Source of the DNA: Leucoraja ocellata
Taxonomy: Eukaryota
Length of the DNA stretch: 33,765 bases
Assembly (NCBI GenBank): GCA_036785375.1
Contig: JAWMAR010000217.1
Coordinates: 1,952,236 to 1,986,000, forward strand
Reading direction: 5' to 3'
Shown: piece after piece, positions 1,357 through 32,967 of the stretch
How the letters are laid out: each line of letters starts with the position of its first letter
How positions within the stretch are numbered: position 1 is the stretch's first letter
Position numbers and translations under genes: made by a program
The notes under the pieces: model-generated
Told to the model about the DNA's origin: nothing
What the model saw: the letters and a program-made list of their open reading frames with translations, nothing else
Databases searched by the model: none

Positions 1357-1430
1357 TTTCAGAAAGAGTCTCGACATGAAACGTCATAAATTCCTTCTCT
1401 CCAGAGATGCTGCCCTTCCCGCTGAGTATC
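1357..1430 (+). mobile_element. Degenerate Penelope-like terminal fragment with decayed hammerhead motif
   Basis: agaaagagtctcgacatgaaacgtcataaattccttctctccagagatgctgcc resembles the termini at 3170, 7538 and 17820. Confidence 0.65.
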
Positions 1431-1610
1431 TATCTTCGAGAACTATAAAGTGTCTAGCTGCAAGATGAAATTATGGTTTTCAAGCTCCCATCAGGTTTCA
1501 TTAGATCAGGATGAGAGGCTAGAGATGAAGAAAATCACCTCTTGGATCCTGCATCAGGTTGGGAGTTGTAGGATTGCAGATTAGGAGAGCCAAGGTCCTA
1601 TTTCATTTCA

Positions 1611-2888: not shown

Positions 2889-3164
2889 GGCCAAAACCTT
2901 TACTGGCGCCATGGAAGCAGGGTCAAATCTCATCATTGACTTCCCTCAACTGACAATTGTTTTTCAAATGTGGAAAGATGTCCTCATTGCACAGTGTCTT
3001 ATCAAGAACTTGTACTAACAGTGGACAGTAGAGCAGCAGAGGCAGGATAGTAGTAGTCCCTTGCTTTTCAGATCCAAAATCCTTATCTGTCCCATGGTGA
3101 TCACTGACTTTGGATCTTCCATACAGAATTTTGATTGACAAAAGTGCCAACAAAATAACTTCAG

Positions 3165-3203
3165 ATGGTCTGAAGAAGGGTTTCGGCCCGAAACGTTGCC
3201 TAT
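3165..3203 (+). ncRNA. Minimal type I hammerhead ribozyme motif, core intact
   Basis: CUGAAGA (3170-3176), extra A, stem II GGGU-UUCG-GCCC, GAAA (3190-3193), palindromic AACGUU, GUU triplet; weak stem I (auggu/gccuau). Activity untested. Confidence 0.65.
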
Positions 3204-3262
3204 TTCCTTCGCTCCATAGATGCTGCTGCACCTGCTGAGTTTCTCCAACTTTTTTGTGTACC
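3170..3262 (+). mobile_element. 93-bp Penelope-derived insertion with 9-bp TSD
   Basis: tcagatggt at 3161-3169 and 3263-3271; the insert matches the Penelope terminus at 7538-7630 and 17820-17908. Confidence 0.85.
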
Positions 3263-3622
3263 TCAGATGGTTGTTGTGTTTGCATTTTTTTTTATAGTTC
3301 ACCAGTAGTATCCCCATGGTGTTACACTCCTGATAAATTACAAACACCAAAATCCATTCCTGTTTTTTGTTCAACTATTAGACCATATGAAATAGTGAGC
3401 CATGATAATTACAAATTTGCTTTTTCTTGGATACTTTCTTTCAAATGATACATTCATTAACAAGAGTTAAGAATAAGGGATATAGACCCAAACTATTATT
3501 CTAAGGTGCAGCTTATTGGGAAATCAAGGAATTGTGATCAGTGCCACAGCAGAAGAAAACTATTAATGCCTTTCCATTGTTTTGTATGTTCAAATAAAAT
3601 ACAAATTGCTCATAATAATCAG

Positions 3623-3852
3623 GACACAAGTGACTGCAGATGCTGAAATCTCGAGCAAAAAACAAAGTGCTGGAGGAATTCAGCGAGTTGGGCAATCATC
3701 TCCGGAAGGAATGGACTGCCGATGTTTTGGATTTGGACTTTTCTTCAGATGAAGCAGTGCGAAGAAGGGTCCTGACCCCAAAATGTTGTCTGGCCATTCT
3801 CTCCACAGATGCTGCCTGACACGCTGAGTTTCGCCAGCATTTTATTTTTCGC
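3623..3852. mobile_element. Older degenerate fold-back of Penelope-like termini
   Basis: The minus arm (...gtgctggaggaattcagcgagttgggc...cttttcttcagat) faces a plus arm (gaagaagggtcctgacccc...gctgagtttcgccagcatt). Confidence 0.65.
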
Positions 3853-4919
3853 TAATAATACTGTTTTGTGAAAAGAAATGAAGTTAACATGCAAGACCGG
3901 TTACCCTTCATCAGAACCAATGATTAAAGAACATGGACCCAAAATGCTTCTGCTTTTCTCTCCATAGATGCTGACTGAACTGCCAAGTGCTTTTTCAGTT
4001 TTTAAATTTCATATTAATACCATCCACTAATTTGGGTTTTTGATTAGCATTTTGTATGCTATTGTGTATCAGATTCAGATTAAGAGCATACAAGTTTCCG
4101 AAGACCTAATACAGGTGTCAGAGGTGTGGAAACTGAACGATAAATATTTCATGTGATAAAATAGAATGTTCACCAATCCATTCATGCAAGCTCCATAATT
4201 TAAACAGACAAAAATCTGATATAGTTGCCTGACACTTTAATTAATTAATGACACTATTTTTCAGCCACAATTGTATTCCAATCTTTCACAATCTACAAAC
4301 AAACATAGGCAATTTGTTCAATTGACTCCAGCACATAGTACAACCTCACAATTAAAAACTAAATTCACACTATATTTGCTTTACAGTTGGGATCAGTATA
4401 TTATACAAAATATACAATTAAGAAGCACATTGTAAACACAAAATAATTCCTCAGGTTAATAGCTGTGAACAATATCTAGTTACACATTCTACATACCAAC
4501 ATGTTCAATTGAATAAAAATTAAATTACATCTTACTGAAATTATAATAATTTTATTTGCTAAAGTACAAATTTAAAACATTTTCCATTGTAGCTATTTTA
4601 TGATTTTTTAAAATGAATGTGCATGTGAAGAAACGTCCAGCTGTATATAGGTATTACCCGATAACTAATATTAGTCAAGTCAAATCATTATAAACATAAC
4701 ATATATTTACTGGTGTTCATGGGGATGAAATTGGGGGAAATAAGCACAAATTTCACCTTTAAATTAACAGATTATCGCATAATCCTTTCTTTTGCAATCT
4801 GCCAGTACAGTGTTTTCCGAGAGCGTAGTAAGGCAAACTGGTGTGATTGCAGTTATATTATCTGACAACACAATATAAGCAACAGTAAGAGAAGAAAGTT
4901 ATTTATTGCATGACAGCAA

Positions 4920-5495: not shown

Positions 5496-7101
5496 TTTCA
5501 AAAGCTATGCACACTTGATGTTGTACTAATGACGCTTCAGCTCAAAACTTCAGTTATTTTGTAACTTTAAAGCAAAACTGAGCAATGGTTTGCCTTCCTA
5601 AATGAATAAACCTTCAATCTTTAAAGTTTGTCCAAATATTCACAACAATTTTGCTACTAGTTGTACACAGTTGAAACAATGGGAAGAATTATATTTAAAT
5701 GAAATAGTGATTCTAATCAATTTATTAAAATTCATTTAAATATTTGAACTAAACCATAGCAGCAATGAGTAAAACCGGCTAAAACAGTCAAATGAACTAT
5801 TGAACAGCTGTAATAGTTAAAAGGACCAGAATATCCCGGATTTATCACAACAGATAATGGGTCTAGCTCACTTGGAGATATTTATTCAAAGATATTGTCT
5901 TCTAATTTAAAATCTTAGCTTTAAAAATGTAAATTCATAAAACTGTAACCAGGGCTGGAATTTATTTTAGTTTTAAACTCTGAAAACAAACATTAGCCGA
6001 ACCCCTGTGTGACTATTCCCCCAAATAGCAGACCCCACTCCGGCAAAGGCAACCACCCAAGAGGGCGGTACACGTACACGTAGGCTATTCAAATATGTCC
6101 CTGGGACATGATGGTCAGGTCTTGCAATGTAAAATAGAGTAAAAATATACTTAAATGGGGTAAAAAAAAAAGGAGAATAATCTTAATCATGTCAAAGAAA
6201 ATGAAAACTGCCAAAATGCTGAGTGATTTCTCTCCAGAAGTTATATTACCTTGTACAAACTTCATGAATGGTCTGCAATATTCAAGTCAAATAGCAAAAA
6301 ACGTTTTCACAAAACAAAATGCACTGAGACATTGTTAAAGATAGCATTACTTTCCATACTAATCGAATTTCCTGGCATGTTAATAAGTAGCAATTTAGTT
6401 TCCTGAACATTTGAATAAAATACCAAGATTGACAAAATTCATTAACTTTCTTATAAAAGAATAAAGGCAGTCTTCATCACTATGTCCTGCAAGTGCATTC
6501 CTTCAAACTTAGTGCAAGCACCTTTCAAATCATTGCACTTTCAGTTTACAGATATATGATGTCAGCCATGACTATTAAAAACATTAAAAAAAAAGAATTC
6601 TATCGGTTTTGCTACACATGGAACCAAAAGCAAAAGACAAGGTTTTACTGAATCAATACTAAAAACAAAATTTCCAGCCCTAGTAATAACCAATTTTCTG
6701 TGATACATATATCACCAAGTCCTTCAAATTAATAGATCTGATTACACAATATTATTGAATTCATTTTTAAAGTTTTCTATCACTGGTATTAATAATGTCA
6801 AAATCATCTTTGCCTTAAAAATTATGTTCCACCTATGGGAGCATTTCACATAGTGTTTATTAATGCTTTGTTTTTTTTACAAAAAATAATTCAGGTATTA
6901 CTTTAGGAGCTGTGTTTATTGCATGCAACTACGAATTCCATAAATCTGAGGATTCAATAACGTACTCTCTGAAACCATAATATTGTGAAAGAGCATTTTG
7001 TTTGTTAAATAGTGCAGCTACTCTAACTAGATAGTGATAGACTCTGATTAAACTGCATTCAATACTCTGTTAAAATTCATCTCAGTAAGAGAAAGAAACA
7101 G

Positions 7102-7665
7102 GTGTACAAAAATGCTGGAGAAACTCAGCGGGTGAGGCAGCATCTATGGAGAGAAGGAAATAGGCAACGTTTTGGGCCGAAACCCTTCCTCAGACTGATG
7201 CGAGGATGGGGGGGAGGTGGGAAGAAGAAAGGAAGAGGAGGAGCCAGTGGGCTGAGGGAGAGCTGAGAAGGGGAGGAGAAACTAAGGACTACCGGAAATT
7301 AGAGAAGTCAATGTTCATACCGCTGGGGTGCAAACTGCCCAAGCGAAACTGCCCATCGGAGGAGCAGTACCTCATATTTTGCTTGGGCAGTTTGCACCCT
7401 AGCGGTATGAACATTGACTTCTCTAATTTCAGGTAGTCCTTACTTTCTCCTCCCCTTCTCAGCTCTCCCTCAGCCCACTGGCTCCTCCTCTTTCTTTCTT
7501 CTCCTCCCCCCCCCCCCCCCCCCCTCCTCACATCAGTCTGAGGAAGGGTCTCGGCCCAAAACGTTGCCTATTTCCTTCGCTCCATAGATGCAGCCTCACC
7601 CACTGAGTTTCTCCAGCATTTTTGTCTACCTTCGATTTTCCAACATCTGCAGTTCTTTCTTAAAC
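7102..7665. mobile_element. Penelope-like fold-back insertion (inverted arms of about 250 bp) with 15-bp TSD
   Basis: aagagaaagaaacag at 7087-7101 and 7666-7680. Arms about 7102-7348 and 7377-7630. The ORF track gives the same peptides on both strands, ending in the GIY-YIG C-terminus LGSLHPSGMNIDFSNFR*. Confidence 0.92.
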
Positions 7666-7837
7666 AAGAGAAAGAAACAGTCAGGTCCACACTACACATT
7701 ATATTACTGGGTTTCGATGAAAATTTATTGGGTTACAACATTTTGCAATGTCTTAGAAGAAATGTGCACTTACAATATAAGGGAAAATGAAATAGGAATT
7801 AAAAAGTCACTTCTAAAGCAATTTCAGATTTTTAATT

Positions 7838-8202
7838 TGACTGTCTACAAGGGATTGGACACGCTAGATGCAGGAAACATGTTCCCAATGTTGGGGGAGT
7901 ACAAAACCATGGGCCACAGTTTAAGAATAAGGGGTAGGCCATTTAGAACTGAGATGAGGAAACTTTTTCACACAGAGTTGTGAATTTGTGGAAATCTTTG
8001 CCTCAGAGATTTCCACAAATTGGCCAGTGCAGGCCAATTCACTGGATTATTCAAAAGAGAGTTAGATGGAGCTCTTCGGGCTAGTGGAATCAAGGAATAT
8101 GGGGAGAAGGAAGGAATGGGGTACTGATTGTGAATGATCAGCCATGATCACATCCAAGGGCCAAATGGCCGATTCTTGCACCTACTGTCTATGTATCAAT
8201 GT
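7838..8202 (+). mobile_element. CR1/HER-type LINE 3' fragment
   Basis: YKGLDTLDAGNMFPMLGEYKTMGHSLRIRGRPFRTEMRK matches the C-terminus of ORF 20208-20810; CR1 tail follows. Confidence 0.85.
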
Positions 8203-10117
8203 AACTGAAACAGCAATATTTAATTGAAAATATTGATGCCATTATTTATATGGAAAAAATTAGGCATTTTAGCACATTTTCCTTTACAATTATTTAGGGA
8301 ATTAGAGTCACCATGATAAAAATGTTATGATGAACATCCTCAAGAACTGACTACTGAATCTTTCAATAACATGATATCTCGACTCCAAAAACACATAAAA
8401 GGAACCCTCTATTTTGTCATCACGAGAATTCCATTCTCCTCAAATTCTATGCAATGCAAATTTTTAAAACTGTTAAAAGAAATTTGCTTTGATCAACGAA
8501 ATCCAATTCACAATCTGCAATTTTAGTTCATAAAATCGGAAATTCCATTTGATTGTCACTTTATACATTAAATTGTCTATTCTATTGTGTTTGGAATCCA
8601 ACTGAATAAAATGGATCCTTTTTCATGTACTCAAATTCACTGAAGACAGATTTACACATGGCCCCAGGGTAACACACTTAAATAAAACTTTCCCCCTACA
8701 ATTAAAAAAATCTTTGTTTAATTCTCTACTTTTGGAAAATATTTCAAGAACGGTTTAGTACAATGAGAAAGTAATTCTGCTATCATTTTTTTTATAATAA
8801 TACATTAAATACAAATAAGCATGAGGAGCAATGTTGAAAAATCTGCTATTCTGAATTACTTGGAAGATAAAGCAAGTCTATGTTAATCCTGAAATGTTAT
8901 TTGCCCTTTGTGGATAAATTTAAAGACCAATATACTATGCCATAGGTTGTTAACTATCATTAAATAAGTTATTTGATAGTGTGCAAGAGTGAATCTATTT
9001 TTCATTCCTGCTGATTTTATAAAGGCACTTTATCATTGTATAGTCAATGGGAAATGTAACATAATAGATTTGGCAATCAAACCAAACCCTACTCAGTACT
9101 TTGAATTTCCAAAATAACCCATTTAATTTCATGTGTTTATAAAATGAAACATTCAAGCTATTGGGCAATAACAGCGTCAGAATTATCATTCTTGATAAAT
9201 GGGTCAAGTATAATGACATTATCAAATATCATTACTTGTTGAAAGGAAGAAAAGTTTACCAAACAACCTCTATTACTACAACCAGTACAGTGATACTAGC
9301 TTGGTAACTTGGCTGATGATACACAGATGATTAAATCTATGAAGAAACATTAACCATTTAATAATTTATGGAGATGGCAAGGTGTCAAAGGAGTACTAAA
9401 ATATAAAATAACACAACTAAATGTTGGTACAATCTTGTGTAAGTTTTGCATGTAATAGATTTCCCACAGGTCACTCTGCCACTTAAAAACATTCACACCT
9501 TTGCTAAATGCTACAAAATTAGAAACACGGCATTGTATGTGCCAATAAATCACTTTGCACAACAGTGTAAAAGTCAGCTTTTATAAAGTCCACAGTAATG
9601 TTATCATACAAGTGTGATCTATAAGATAATCAATAAGTGAGCATTTATTTTACAAGTTCAGTCTGCCAAACCTGAAATTTTAATTTTAGACCATTCAAAT
9701 ACTCTGGCATTGGGAAATAAATTGAAAAGTTAGATGCAAGATTCTTGTTTTGATAATCTGGATGCTCAACTGTTACATCTGTACCAGCTATGGACATCAA
9801 GTTTTCTATTCAATATGCTTTGAAAGGTCATATTCCATTAAATAGAAGCTTTTAAAAAAAGACAAAATTGCACTTTCAAGTTAACAGGATTAAATCAAAA
9901 ATGCCCAATCTGTAGTAAAAATAATTCAATCATGTGTATTTCCAGCCACTAAACAAATCACATCCTTGCTGAATCATTGCTGATTGCAGAATTTCAATAT
10001 TGCATTCGCATCCTCTGAAATCTTTTTGCAAAATTAAACAATCTTGTGAAGACTTGTGTGATTCATGGATACTTGATGGCCTTGTTTGTGGATGCGTGCA
10101 ATCGTCCTGGTTGGCAG

Positions 10118-11434: not shown

Positions 11435-11772
11435 GAATAGAGGAGAAAGGAGAAAGGAAGAGGAGGAGCCCGAGGGCTGAGGGAGAGCTGAGAAGAGGAG
11501 GAGACAGCAAGGGCTACCGGAAATTGGAGGTCAATGTTTATGCCGCTAGGGTGCAATCTGCCCAAGCGGAATATGAGGTGCTGCTCCTCCAATTTGTGGT
11601 GGGCTTCACTCTGGCCAAGGAGGAGGCCCAGGACAGAAAGGTCGGATTCGGAATGGGAGGAAGAGTTGAAGTGCTGAGCCACCGGGAGATTAGGTTGGTT
11701 ATTGCGAACTGAGTGGAGATGTTGTGCGAAGCGATCGCCAAGCCTGCAATTGGTCTCACTGAGGTTGATCAT
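11435..11772 (-). mobile_element. Penelope-like element GIY-YIG C-terminal fragment
   Basis: ETNCRLGDRFAQHLHSVRNNQPNLPVAQHFNS...KLEEQHLIFRLGRLHPSGINID within ORF 11242-11832. Confidence 0.88.
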
Positions 11773-12135: not shown

Positions 12136-12409
12136 TACTTTCAAGTGAGAGCAAGATAGGGCTCTTAAAGAGTCAGGGGATATGGGGAGAAGGCAGGAAC
12201 AGGGTACTGACTGTGGATGATCAGCCATCTTTTTCTCTTGTATCTTTTAGTCCTACAGCTCCGTTGAGGTGAGCCAGGCCAACGATGAGATGGCATAAAA
12301 GCCATGCCCCCCCCCCAGGCCAGGCGGCACCGTTATCAGCCATGATTACATTGAATGGCGATGCTAGCTCGAAGGGCCGAATGGCCAACTCCTGCACCTA
12401 TTGTCTATA
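12136..12409 (+). mobile_element. CR1 3' end split by a 106-bp insertion (12229-12334)
   Basis: CR1 tail sequence on both sides; atcagccat duplicated at 12220-12228 and 12335-12343. Confidence 0.8.
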
Positions 12410-16789: not shown

Positions 16790-18650
16790 ATACCAGATAC
16801 TTGCATGATCTTTTGCAATCATGTGTTTAGAAACCCAGATTCTCTGCATCTCTGCTCTGCAATCTCTCATCATTTAGGCAATATGCTTCTTTCTCTTATT
16901 TTTCCTATCAAAACAGACAATTTTATATTTTCCACTATTTGCTCATTTACCCGAACTTTCTATATCACATCTGCACCCAGGATGAGGTGTTCCAAACCAG
17001 GGCTTCGGAGATGTCCTCATACTTTAGAGAACGGGGCATCCCCTCTTCAACTATAGATGAGGCTCTCACTAGGGTCGCTTCTATATCCTGTAGCTCCGCT
17101 CACATTCCCCATCCCTCCACTCGTAACAAGGACAGAGTTCACCTTCCACCCTACCAGCCGTCACATAAAACAGATCATCCTCCGACATTTTCGCCACCAC
17201 CAACGGGATCCCACAACTGGCCACATCTTGCCATCTCCTCCCCTTTCAGCTTTCCGCAGAGACCGCTCCCATCGTAATTCCCTGGTTAATTAGTCTTTTC
17301 CCACCCAAACAACCCCCTCCCCTGGTACTTTCCCTTGCAGCTGCAGGAAATGCTACACTTGTCGCTTTACCTCCCCCCTTGACTCCATCTAAGGACCCAA
17401 GCAGTCTTTCCAGGTGAGGCAGAGGTTCACCTGCACCTCCTCCAACCTCATCTATTGCATCCGCTGCTCCAGGTGGCAACTGTTCTACATCGCAGACTTG
17501 GCAATCGCTTCGCCCAACACCTCCGCATTAACCAACCTGATCTCCCGGTGGCCCAGCACTTCAACTCCCCCTCCCCTTCCCCTTCCGAATTCGGCCTTTC
17601 TTTCCTGGGCCTCCTCCATGGCCAGAGTGAGCCCTACCGCAAATTGGAGGAGCAGCACCTCATATTTCGCTTGGGTAGTTGACACCCCAGTGGTATGAAC
17701 ATTGATTTCTCCAATTTCAGGTTGTCCTTGCTTTCTCCCTCCTTCCCCTCCCCTTCCCAGTTCTCCCACAGCCCATTGTCTCAGCCTCTTCCTTTCTTCT
17801 CCCCCCCCCCCACATCAGTCTGAAGAAGGGTCTTGACGCGAAACCTCACCTATTCCTTCGCTCCATAGATGCCGCCTCACCCGCTGAGTTTCTCCAGCAT
17901 TTTTGACTACTTTCTATATCACTCTGTAGCTTCCTTATGTTCTCTTCATACACTATGCAACCAATCTCATCACCAATAAATGTATTAACCATACTTTGAG
18001 TGTCTGCTCAATTATCTACAATTTTCTTTTTAAAGTAGGGGCCCCAGCCTTGATCTTAGTGGTACACTACTTATTACATCTTGCCAACCTGAAAATAATG
18101 CATTTAAGCCAACTGTTTCCTTTTTAGTCAGCCAATCTTTTATCTATACTCATATTACTTCTTACACCATAAACATTTATTTTTTTGTAACAATCTTTGA
18201 TGTGGCACCTTATCAAATGCCTTTTGGGCATTGAAATGCATCCACTTTTTTTTCCTTATCCACAGCAGGTTACTTCTTCAAAAGAAATTCAATGTATTTC
18301 TTTCTTTCAAATGACCATGCTGAGTTTTCCTGAAGCACAAAATGTTTCTAATTTTCCTACAAAAACTTTTTAATAATAGCTTTTAAAAATGTTTAATGAC
18401 AGGTGTTAATAAATTAGTTGGCTGTTGATTCCTGCTTTTTGTTCAGCGTCGTTTTTGAAGAAGTGAATTACATTTACTATTTTTCAATCTAATGGAGTCT
18501 TCTCCGATCTAAAGAATTTTAGAAAATTAAATTCATTTCATCAACTATTTCATTCCCCTTTCCATTAAAATATTGTGATGAATCTATCAGGACCTGGAGA
18601 CTGGTCAGCTGACAATTCCAATATTTATTTAGAACACTTTCGTGGTGACT
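16790..18650 (-). mobile_element. Old CR1 RT relic, interrupted by the Penelope insertion
   Basis: Minus-strand motifs such as gtggcaccttatcaaatgccttttgg (QKAFDKVP) and catcaggacctggaga-like (SPGPD), with many stops. Confidence 0.55.
16969..17908 (+). mobile_element. 5'-truncated Penelope-like retroelement (RT C-terminal/linker + GIY-YIG + terminus) with 14-bp TSD; frameshifted
   Basis: actttctatatcac at 16955-16968 and 17909-17922. Peptides FQTRASEMSSYFRERG, C-x-C-xx-C-xx-C linker, CTSSNLIYCIRCSRWQLFYI (GIY-YIG) and KLEEQHLIFRLGS. Decayed hammerhead at 17820-17848. Confidence 0.92.
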
Positions 18651-20061: not shown

Positions 20062-21065
20062 AAGACAATAAACAATAGATGCAGGAGTAGGCCATTCGGC
20101 CCTTCGAGCCAGCATCACCATTCAATGTGATCATGGCTGATCATCCCCAATCAGTACCCGTTCCTGCCTTCCCCCCATATCCCCTGACTCCGCTATTTTT
20201 AAGAGCCCTATCTAGCTCTCTCTTGAAAGCATCCAGAGAACGCGGCTCCACCACCCTGAGGCAAAGAATTCCACAGACTCACCACTCTCTGTGAGAAAAA
20301 GTGTTTCCTTGTATCTGTTCTAAATGGCCTACTCCTTATTCTTAAACTGTGGACCCTGGTTCTGGACTCCCCCAACTTCAGGAACATGTTTCCTGCCTCT
20401 AGCGTGTCCAAACCCTTAACAATCTTATATGTTTCAATGAGATCCCTTCTCATCCTTCTAAACTCCAGAGTGTACAAGCCCAGCTGCTCCATTCTCTCAG
20501 CATATGACAGTCCTGCCATCCCAGGAATTAACCTTGTAAACCTATGCTGCACTCCCTCAATAGCAAGAATGTCCTTCCTCAAATTAGGGGACCAAAACTG
20601 TACACAATACTCCAGGTGTGGTCTCACTAGGGCTCTGTACAACTGCAGAAGGACCTCTTTGCTCCTATATTCGATGCCTCTTGTTATAAAGGCCAACGTG
20701 CCATTCGCTTTCGTCACTGCATGCTGTACCTGCATGCTTACTTTTGTATTCCATTTGCCAATTCTGTATGACTGTATTCCCTCTACCAAATGTCTTATTC
20801 TATTTACCACTGCTTTGACAACTCTCCCAACCTGTCCAAGTCCTTCTGCAGACTCCTTACTTCCTCAACACTACCTGGCCCGCCACCAATCTTCACATCA
20901 TCCACAAATCTGACTACAAACCATCAATTTCATCATCCAGTATCCAAAAGTAGCAGACTCGACACCAACCCCTGTGGAACACCACTAGCAAACGGCAGCC
21001 AATCAGAAAAGGCTCCCTTTATTCCAACTCATTGCCTTCTGCCAGTCAGCAAATCTTCTATCCAT
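20062..21065 (-). mobile_element. Young CR1/HER LINE 3' end (20062-20742) plus adjacent RT fragment
   Basis: ORF 20208-20810: KANGTLAFITRGIEYRSKEVLLQLYRALVRPHLEYCVQFWSP...WNSLPQ. Tail at 20062-20160; VPQGLVS/FVDD remnants at about 20890-20990. Confidence 0.92.
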
Positions 21066-27524: not shown

Positions 27525-28630
27525 AAATAATGAAGAATGTTATCAAGAATTGCAGGGGGATCTTGATCAGCTGGGTAATGGCCGAGGAATTGTAAATTAA
27601 GTTTGTTTCAGATAGGTGCAAGTTGTGAAAAATGTTCCCGATGTTGGTGCAGTCCAGAACCAGGGGTCACAGTTTAAAAATAAGGGGTCAGCCATTTGGG
27701 ACTGAGATGAGGAGAAACATTTTCACCCAGAGAGTTCTGTGAATCTGTGGAATTCTCTACCACAGAAGGAAGTGGAGGCCAATTCGCCGGATGTTTTCAA
27801 GAGAGAGTTAGATTTAGCTCTTCGGGCTAAAGGAATCAAGAAATATGGGGGGAAAATCAGGAAGGAGATACTGATTTTAGATGATCAGCCATGATCATAA
27901 TGAATGGCTGTACAGGCTCAAAGGACCGAATGACCTACCTCCTGAACCTATTTTTCTATGTTGGGTTATTAGGATGCATTTTTGGGATGTCAAACCAATG
28001 TAGGACTTTCACAGTGAACAATAGGGTCAGTGGAAGTGTTGTAGGAGTGGACAGGGTGGTGAAGGCCGTTTTTTTCATGCTGGCTTTCATTTGTTAGGGC
28101 ACAGAGTTTAGACGTTGGGATGGTATGTTATACAAGACGTTGGTGAACATTATATGCAGTTTTAGTCACCCTCTTGTAGGAAATATGCCATTCAGCTAGA
28201 AAAAGTGTAGAAACGATTTATGGCAATGTTGTCAGGACTCGAGAGACTGAGTTATAGGACGAGGTTGGGAAGGTTAGGATCTTACTTCTTGGAACGAAGG
28301 AGTGACCATATAGAGTTGTACAAGGTTATGACGGTATAGATAGGGTGAATGTACACTGTTTTTTTCCCCACAGAGTTTGGGGAAATTAAGAATTAGAGGG
28401 CATAAGTTTAAACTGAGATGGAGCAATTTTTTCACAGAGAATAATGAGTAAATGGAACAAGTTGCTAGAGGCAGTGGTTGAAGCAGGTACTAAAACAACA
28501 TTTAAAAGATATTTAGATAGGTAAATGGGTAGGAAAGTTTTAGCGGGATCATGGATATGGGATAGAGGCAAACAAAGGCATCATTGAACCGAAGGGCCTG
28601 TTTCCATGTTAAATGAATCTATGATGTGAT
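27525..28630 (+). mobile_element. Two or more adjacent CR1 fragments
   Basis: LQGDLDQLG remnant, SRTRGHSLKIRG, WNSLPQ and tail at about 27880-27960; an older copy at 27965-28630. Confidence 0.8.
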
Positions 28631-29387: not shown

Positions 29388-29554
29388 TAGAAACAAGGAA
29401 CTACAAACGCTGGTTACTACACAAAAGGACACAAAGTGCTGGAGTAACTCAGCAGATCAGGCAGCAACTCTGGAGAACATGGATAGGTTGCCAATCCATG
29501 TTCTCCAGAGATGCTGCCTGACCTGCTGAGTTACTCCAGCACTTTGTGTCCTTC
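29388..29554 (-). mobile_element. 167-bp Penelope-terminus fold-back with 11-bp TSD
   Basis: taagctatggg at 29377-29387 and 29555-29565. Arms 29425-29484 and 29494-29553, 58/60 complementary. Confidence 0.9.
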
Positions 29555-29619: not shown

Positions 29620-30192
29620 TAGCAGTCAAGCACAAGGCCATAAGCAAACTGGAAGAACAGCAGCTCGTATTCAACTTGGGTAGCCTTCAAAACCACAAAA
29701 TATTGAATGTTCTCACCACCCTCTCATCTACGTAGGTCCTCCCGTGCACATCTTTCTTTCCATTCCCCCAGCCTTCCATCACCCAGTTCCTTTCCCCTCC
29801 TCCACCTCCACTTTCTGTGCATCACCCACTTCCTACTCCCTCCACGTTCCCTATACCCTGCATCCCTCCATCTCGTTCTACATTTCACATTCCTTTTTCA
29901 GATTCCACTATCTGCAGCCCATTATCTGTTTCACTTACCACGTCAGCCTTTATGACAACCTCCATCCTTCTCACCCCCACTTTGCTCACCTGCCAATCTT
30001 ACCAGAATCGACACATCATATGCCAGCTCTTGCACTACCCCATGCCTGCCACTCACCACTTTCTACCAGGTACCTACCCTTTAATCCAGTCTTGAAAACA
30101 GGTCACAACCCAAAATGACATCTGTCCATTTCCTTCTATAGATATTGCCCGACCTGCTGAGTTCCCACAAGATTCCAGTATTTGCAGTCTCT
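29620..30192 (+). mobile_element. Decayed Penelope-like 3' end
   Basis: KLEEQQLVFNLGSLQ at about 29646-29690, pyrimidine-rich UTR, then degenerate hammerhead and tail at about 30085-30190. Confidence 0.7.
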
Positions 30193-32148: not shown

Positions 32149-32967
32149 AAATCAGATTAGATTAGATTAGATTTGTTCATTGTCATTCAGACCTTTCGGT
32201 CTGAACAAAATTTTGTTTCCCTGCAGTCACACATATAATAAATAATGACAAAAACACCCAATCAACACAAATTTAACATCCACCACAGTGAGTTCACCAA
32301 ACACATCCTCACTGTGGTGGAAGGCAAAATCTTAAAGTCTCTGTCTCTTCCCTCTTTGTTCGTCCTCTGCGCTGAGGCGATCCAGGCTCCAGATGTTGTG
32401 ACCCCACCGGGTGATGGTAAATCCCGCGGCTCAACCGTAATCCGCCACAGCTTCGGGGCCGAGTCGGGTCTCCGCTGCTGCTGCCTCCGTTACAGCTTCG
32501 GGGCCGAGTCGGGTCTCCGCTGCTGCTGCCGCTGCCACCGCCGCCACAGTTCCGGGGCCGAGTCAGGTCTTCGCTGCCTCCGCTACAGCTCCAGGGCCGA
32601 GTCGGGTCTCCGCTGCCACCGCCGCCACAGCTCCGGGGCCAAGTCGGGTCTCCGCTGCTGCTGCCGCTACAGCTCCAGGGCCGAGTCGGGTCTCTGCTGC
32701 CGCCGCTATCACATCTCCGAGGCCGCCAGCTCCGCCATTAGGCCTCGGCGCAGACGGAGACGGGGACGGGGAATACGACAGAAAAAAAGTCGCATCCCCT
32801 GAAGGAAGAGACCAAAACATGTTTCTCCCACCCCACCCACACACATACACAACTTAATAAAACAAAATTAACTAAAACATGACAAAGGAACAAAAAGAAA
32901 GAAAAAAAAACAGACTGCAGGTGGGCCACAGCTGTTAAGCCAGCGCCGCCATCTTAGCCTTCTGCAG
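32149..32967 (-). mobile_element. Unclassified non-autonomous retroelement inserted in CR1 ORF2
   Basis: Splits ...GGC AAG TA / GAT GTT GTG. The minus strand starts near AAGATGGCGGCGC and ends in a stem-loop plus (TCTAA)n tail. Confidence 0.75.
32443..32710. repeat. GC-rich minisatellite, 6 units
   Basis: Core cagctycrgggccgagtcgggtctccgctgc; spacings 45, 54, 39, 42 and 42 bp. Confidence 0.93.

Follow-up and report, generated by a model that had tools for sequence, protein, structure and literature searches.

The window, by which we mean the whole stretch of 33,765 nucleotides from Leucoraja ocellata analysed here, contains a short insert flanked by a 9-bp duplication, TCAGATGGT, at 3161-3169 and 3263-3271, with 93 nt (3170-3262) in between. 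A 93-bp insert with its own target-site duplication had been proposed in a first-pass annotation of this DNA, and the repeats are indeed found (Table 1). Target and element share bases at both junctions: GT at 3168-3169 is common to the duplication and to the element's own ATCAGT (present in 94 of 101 long copies), and T3263 is common to the duplication and to the element's continuation, so that the element-derived stretch is 3168-3263. The insert is one among tens of thousands of short Penelope-like retrotransposon stubs. Across the 3.44-Gb genome its 31-nt core (3170-3200) is matched exactly 25,986 times, the reversed control not once, and the core motif is therefore not a chance occurrence; a 29-nt anchor just downstream of the core has 76,172 genomic matches. 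Positions given below as +n or -n are counted from C3 of the hammerhead core, with window position 3170 as 0.

Further related termini had been listed elsewhere in the window, and these were confirmed together with an additional palindromic one at 29425-29554. It also holds that the copy at 3170 has the only intact core, every other copy in the window showing a broken core box or helix II.

Table 1. Features of the insert and of related copies in the window
Feature	Position	Strand	Remark
Left copy of the target-site duplication, 9 bp	3161..3169	+	final GT doubles as the element's first bases (microhomology)
Helix I, 5' strand, 2 bp (G2.2 U2.1); modal 5' boundary of short copies	3168..3169	+	GT at -2/-1 in 51/70 simple short copies
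Core box CUGANGA (N7=A) and extra nucleotide between A9 and helix II	3170..3177	+	extra nucleotide as in the PLE motif passages of PMC4209133
Helix II, 4 bp (three G-C, one U-G), UUCG loop	3178..3189	+	fourth pair U-A in older families
GAAA box, palindromic ACGU replacing helix III, triplet GUU	3190..3197	+	predicted cut after 3197
Helix I, 3' strand (G1.1, C1.2)	3198..3203	+	A1.1 in older families
Conserved pLTR segment, ends at first 3' end point (~+93)	3204..3263	+	likely internal reverse-transcription start (main text of PMC11167929)
Right copy of the target-site duplication	3263..3271	+	repeats TCAGATGGT
Older short copy, decayed core	1364..1431	+	
Older short copy, decayed core	3755..3843	+	
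Head-to-head inverted pLTR pair, related subfamily	7100..7666	.	both cores AAAA instead of GAAA
GIY-YIG C-terminal remnant of a related copy	11487..11770	-	
5'-truncated longer copy, GIY-YIG remnant and pLTR	16968..17905	+	helix II mismatched
Short palindromic pair of pLTR pieces, without core	29425..29553 (about)	.	
Old short copy, decayed core	30093..30192	+	

The hammerhead motif

The motif reads CTGAAGA (3170-3176), an extra A (3177), a GGGT/GCCC helix II closed by a TTCG loop (3178-3189), GAAA (3190-3193) and CGTT (3194-3197); judged from the sequence, the cut is predicted after U3197 (+28). The first-pass annotation had seen here a minimal type I hammerhead motif of a Penelope-like element (PLE), and this assignment stands. 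The CUGANGA, GAAA and NUH boxes are present in type I order, with GUU as the triplet, and the extra base between 9 and 10.1, the G10.1-C11.1 pair, the palindromic 15.2-16.2 and the missing helix III are all as in the PLE motif passages of PMC4209133, which likewise describe thousands of dispersed single motifs and ascribe them to truncated PLEs. The one exception is helix I, published as 4-5 bp long and here, in the element context, of 2 bp, as in the D. virilis variant; the schistosome families in the same passages have a helix II of 7-8 bp and a helix I of 4-5 bp, against 4 and 2 bp in the skate motif. The GUU triplet of this subfamily also differs from the motifs given there. PLE minimal hammerheads are known from the fish elements Xena, Poseidon and Neptune (PMC4209133, PLE passages), and the searched supplement of that paper holds no shark or skate entry.

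Conservation speaks for the motif in part. Older families differ in loop II, at position 17 (U or C) and by two wobble-to-Watson-Crick changes (U-G to U-A, in helices I and II), and among divergent copies position N7 varied in 23/89 cases, the nearby A6 and A9 taken together in 15/176 (p=0.0003). Of the expected preferential conservation of the core over its flanks and covariation in stem II, it is the placement of variation at free positions, with the pairs kept, that was observed; motifs downstream of the core are conserved as well as the core itself, and the families compared show no two-sided compensatory change. The proposed check with Rfam hammerhead models gave no match, either on the window at E<=5 or on 3120-3300 at E<=10.

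Folding stability across three window stretches did not exceed that of shuffled sequences (z from -0.43 to +0.04), and the catalytic fold is not the lowest-energy fold predicted. In a computation that leaves tertiary contacts outside the model, the catalytic monomer fold came out at -4.5 to -8.0 kcal/mol and the most stable monomer at -14.9, a gap of 7-10 kcal/mol, and the cross-paired dimer at -7.1 to -10.9 against a dimer minimum of -41.0 kcal/mol. At window 3191-3197, U at position 17 lengthens the palindrome to AACGUU, and A14 could pair with the partner's U17, holding the cut site; copies with this palindrome are predicted from sequence to be less active than GUC copies. Published metazoan PLE hammerheads cleave weakly as dimers (PMC4209133, PLE passages) or solely when the element's protein is present (main text of PMC11167929).

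The parent element and the ends of its copies

Window 3168-3260 is identical in 92 of 93 nt to the 3' pLTR of a locus (L031) that carries a near-complete RT and GIY-YIG element in partial tandem, with pLTRs at 4191-4831 and 8128-8767; among the best 30 loci, two have at least 1,500 nt of shared upstream sequence. L031 and a second locus, L032, encode a reverse transcriptase (Pfam RVT_1, E 1.5e-06, 28.5 bits, just below the curated cut-off of 29.6); downstream of it come a CX4CxxC linker and then a GIY-YIG domain, which itself contains a CxxC. In both, the linker is CNRKRCNTC, which fits the CX2-5CxxC between RT and EN, and the parent would accordingly belong to the Neptune/Nematis type by the zinc motif definitions given in the relevant sections of PMC8557442. 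Further features of EN+ PLEs were found as well: RT with a C-terminal GIY-YIG, pLTRs in partial tandem, an optional 30-40 bp tail, inverted 5' copies and a variable duplication. The parent retrotransposon is very abundant and young. Identity to the L031 pLTR supports the earlier proposal that the insert was mobilised by a Penelope RT/GIY-YIG, presumably through target-primed insertion by the parent's own GIY-YIG/RT.

Several other arrangements of the parent were seen. One locus (L099, G000:C1:8664002-8673002) has three core matches 3,985 nt apart and represents a tandem array of full-length units; arrays of this type could supply read-through RNA. Long copies with identical flanks recur on several small contigs (L241, L243, L245-L247, L236-L240) and represent duplicated loci; those of the L243 group are chimeric, a pLTR of an older family being combined with the young family's body.

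The 5' ends of copies were mapped in two sets. For set 1, the first 100 core matches listed on contig C1 were taken; the 98 retrieved reduce to 92 distinct copies, of which 45 begin at -6..0 (most often at -2, GT), 21 at -15..-454 and 26 further upstream. The stop rate is 0.096/nt at -6..0 against 0.0013/nt upstream, an approximately 70-fold difference, with 3 of the 92 copies starting between -7 and -50. Set 2 was collected with the anchor downstream of the cut site, which sees starts anywhere in the core; its 96 copies, from the first 100 listed matches, overlap set 1 and retain some duplicated loci. Here, 36 copies start at -6..0, 16 at +1..+12, 2 at +13..+26, 4 at +27..+31 and 38 upstream. 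Two of the four starts near the predicted cut (+28) are the arms of one palindrome and a third is a tandem junction. Since 5' ends are so rare at the predicted cut, cleaved RNA seems not to be the usual template, which agrees with the in vitro result for the anole element (main text of PMC11167929).

The 5' edge is a smear over several bases, C at -4 being still enriched (25/51 against a background of 24%). GT at -2/-1 is found not only in the simple short copies (Table 1) but in nearly all long copies, and it is therefore element sequence. This goes against the idea that stem I is partly supplied by the target: GU 2.1-2.2 is the element's own, the extension in this particular flank arises by chance, and a G at -3, the base that would lengthen helix I, is present in 8/51 simple copies, the background being 18% (p=0.86). 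From -750 to +375 no second comparable 5' peak was found. Five of 59 longer copies (L276, L291, L300, L316, L325) start at -374..-378, around a short palindrome within the sequence coding for GIY-YIG, perhaps a second hot spot of lesser weight.

Long-bodied copies that reach the upstream pLTR offer a second passage across the same site. In a hand count that merges duplicates and omits copies cut short before +12, the stop falls at -5..+4 in 4 of 20 independent events, one of the four being chimeric, compared with 45/92 in set 1 (p=0.024). Long-bodied copies mostly continue to -51 or beyond, and most long templates must therefore extend past the site.

At the other end, the copies of set 1 stop at about +93 (61/92) or about +130 (27/92), and both end points recur in short (29 and 14 of 45) and long copies (32 and 13 of 47). 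This bimodality is, by analogy, the optional PLE tail, which the main text of PMC11167929 links to two internal starts of reverse transcription, and a comparable internal priming would apply to the skate element. Duplications of 7-16 bp were found in 23 of 29 simple short copies, against 1 of 118 in a shuffled-pairing control, and in 5 of the 23 the duplication includes the GT, as in the copy at 3170; joining appears to proceed via microhomology of 1-2 nt. Of the 45 short copies, 15 form the arms of inverted inserts, and in some inverted or tandem inserts (L061/L165, L123, L105, L217, L227) both pieces start at about -2. Among 30 loci containing +138..+228, 15 (13 after merging duplicates; L214-L235) are short partial tandems, in which an upstream piece ending at +230..+298 is directly joined to a pLTR copy, often via a short C/T-rich microhomology near -89. 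The cluster hints that an RNA ends at these positions or that there is a second site of entry, its size being no more than indicative, as the +138..+228 query itself picks pieces that reach +228.

Origin of the short copies and of their 5' boundary

We consider it rather probable (roughly 0.65) that the insert is a short pLTR copy made by the parent's reverse transcriptase, which started internally and stopped at the front edge of the motif, likely at the 5' ends of template RNAs. Reverse transcription would begin within the RNA of the element, about 93 nt downstream of the core, and copying would halt at the front edge, most likely because some of the template RNAs have their 5' end at this point. 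For this cause of the stop taken by itself, an RNA 5' end at the edge, the chances appear slightly short of even. It is favoured because both pieces of tandem and inverted inserts start at about -2, as in run-off from a template end. The boundary lies within TCAGTC, which we take to match the initiator consensus. In its simple form, with all RNAs beginning at the edge, the explanation fails, since long-bodied copies stop there in 4/20 events; either read-through RNAs from tandem arrays exist beside RNAs of short start, or a roadblock at this site is leaky. The smeared edge, with starts also at +1..+12 in set 2, likewise counts against the explanation. In RNA reads of related species neither a start nor an end peak was seen, an uninformative result, reads of embedded copies probably swamping any start signal.

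In the roadblock case, which we regard as possible but the less probable of the two, templates pass through the site and the enzyme sometimes stalls at a C-rich pyrimidine tract followed by CAG (likely a 3' splice site), owing to bound proteins or to the tract itself. Such stalling would suit a hot zone that ends at the start of the C tract, with hardly a start just upstream of it, and the partial nature of the stops (49% on the first pass, 4/20 on the second pass in long copies); moreover, in D. virilis the intron stops where helix I begins (PMC4209133, PLE passages), which is the position of CAG|T here. What it lacks is an upstream run-off peak as a transcription start. A start site at about -171, hinted at by three early copies and the D. 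virilis spacing, was rejected on an independent sample, in which 0 of 59 ends fell at -170..-172, and RNA reads of related species had no GT..AG joint among those listed, 87 and 7 weaker joints lying below the listing. A boundary made by ribozyme cleavage or by splicing would account for its coincidence with the ribozyme edge and with the pyrimidine tract and CAG; it is largely excluded, however, as the predicted cut lies at +28, where 4/96 copies start, and as upstream element sequence is joined as an exon in 0/45 short and 0/7 tandem-tagged copies. With neither exon-joined copies nor a listed GT..AG joint, the model of a spliced template was abandoned. A DNA search with the pyrimidine-rich stretch returned no match, which has no bearing on its rarity.

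The short units are best read as products of the parent element, that is, as stubs of its RNA. The first-pass annotation had instead seen in them a separate non-autonomous ribozyme-bearing family, and this part of it is not borne out: short and long copies share the same two 3' ends, and all tabulated variants are found in both classes. An independent family, in which the 93-130 nt unit would be transcribed and mobilised in trans, appears improbable to us despite its discrete ends, own duplications and very high copy number. The unit ends at the presumed start of reverse transcription and would thus lack the downstream RNA that the anole protein needs, provided that this requirement transfers to the present clade; in the main text of PMC11167929, the protein needs the first 172 nt of the ORF and reverse transcription starts at 111-118. 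By eye, short copies have no upstream flank in common beyond whole-locus duplicates. The proportions of variants are unequal, with TAAC:TAC at 24:15 in short and 38:7 in long copies (p=0.025, uncorrected) and the GUC triplet rarer in short copies (7/52 against 13/38 in long ones; p=0.023, uncorrected), which leaves room for some separate amplification, subfamily-specific stop rates being another possibility. Still less credible, in our view, is an origin as solo pLTRs, through recombination of a full element's two end repeats. Direct repeats do exist at both ends of L031, and such an outcome would retain the duplication, but the 5' pLTR starts of long copies are scattered from -51 to beyond -1099, so that solos would not have one common edge, and a third of the short copies (15/45) are inverted-insert arms. 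The stub was likely dead on arrival, with its ribozyme motif as a passenger.

A wider picture may tentatively be drawn, to which we give a little less credence than to the RNA 5' end itself. The stubs would record Penelope copying in vivo: reverse transcription from two internal sites would run to a fixed RNA 5' end at the front edge of the ribozyme, yielding a strong-stop-like cDNA, which would subsequently either be integrated or jump to an RNA end lying about 230-300 nt beyond the core, and so would build partial tandems and inverted pLTRs without ribozyme cleavage.

Relation to described elements

The ribozyme class, the type of element, dispersed single motifs, the tail, inverted copies and duplications have already been published, and the insert is a real but unexceptional example of what is already known, apart from one oddity that is useful for the mechanism. 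As to EN+ PLEs of the Neptune/Nematis type, the sections concerned in Craig et al. 2021 (PMC8557442) and Arkhipova et al. 2013 (PMC3846280) describe, as seen here, 5' truncation, partial tandems, an inverted 5' copy, an optional 30-40 bp tail, variable duplication and solo pLTRs; the truncation is described there without a hot spot, whereas about half of the skate copies have one 5' boundary in common. In the Poseidon element of Anolis carolinensis (Frangieh et al. 2024, PMC11167929), the main text likewise reports two 3' end points 30-40 nt apart, a hammerhead in the pLTR and no sign of ends at the cut site, and the priming of both strands fits the inverted pairs found here. Poseidon belongs to another clade, however, the skate element having the CX2-5CxxC linker, and the likely start codon of the latter lies past the tail and not at helix II. 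A 5' stop at the ribozyme edge does not appear in that main text, although Fig. S2 of the paper could bear on the point.

Non-LTR retrozymes (Li et al. 2026, bioRxiv 10.64898/2026.07.22.740005), in the parts of that preprint considered here, are similar in being short non-coding hammerhead units related to PLE pLTRs, with many monomers, and occur in one chondrichthyan. They need tandem arrays of at least two hammerhead units, whereas the present insert is solo; no tandem hammerhead array lies in the window, and 7 of 219 copies are tandem-tagged.

The passages of PMC4209133 on PLE motifs do not map copy boundaries, and the searched open literature, exclusive of the supplementary figures of PMC11167929 and file 1 of PMC4209133, held no report of a 5' hot spot at a PLE hammerhead. 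What is added here are the second-pass count (4/20) and the junction cluster at +230..+298. Boundary statistics could matter for how PLEs build their pLTRs, tails and inverted ends and for the role that the hammerhead plays, since starts and stops can be mapped precisely in a young family whose identical cores number about 26,000.

Two further repeats of the window may be recorded. A second dispersed family (2691-2886, 7849-8160, 12170-12408, 20063-20417, 27627-27938) presumably resembles the 3' ends of CR1/L2-type LINEs, and 32435-32725 is taken up by a GC-rich tandem repeat whose period is about 42 nt.
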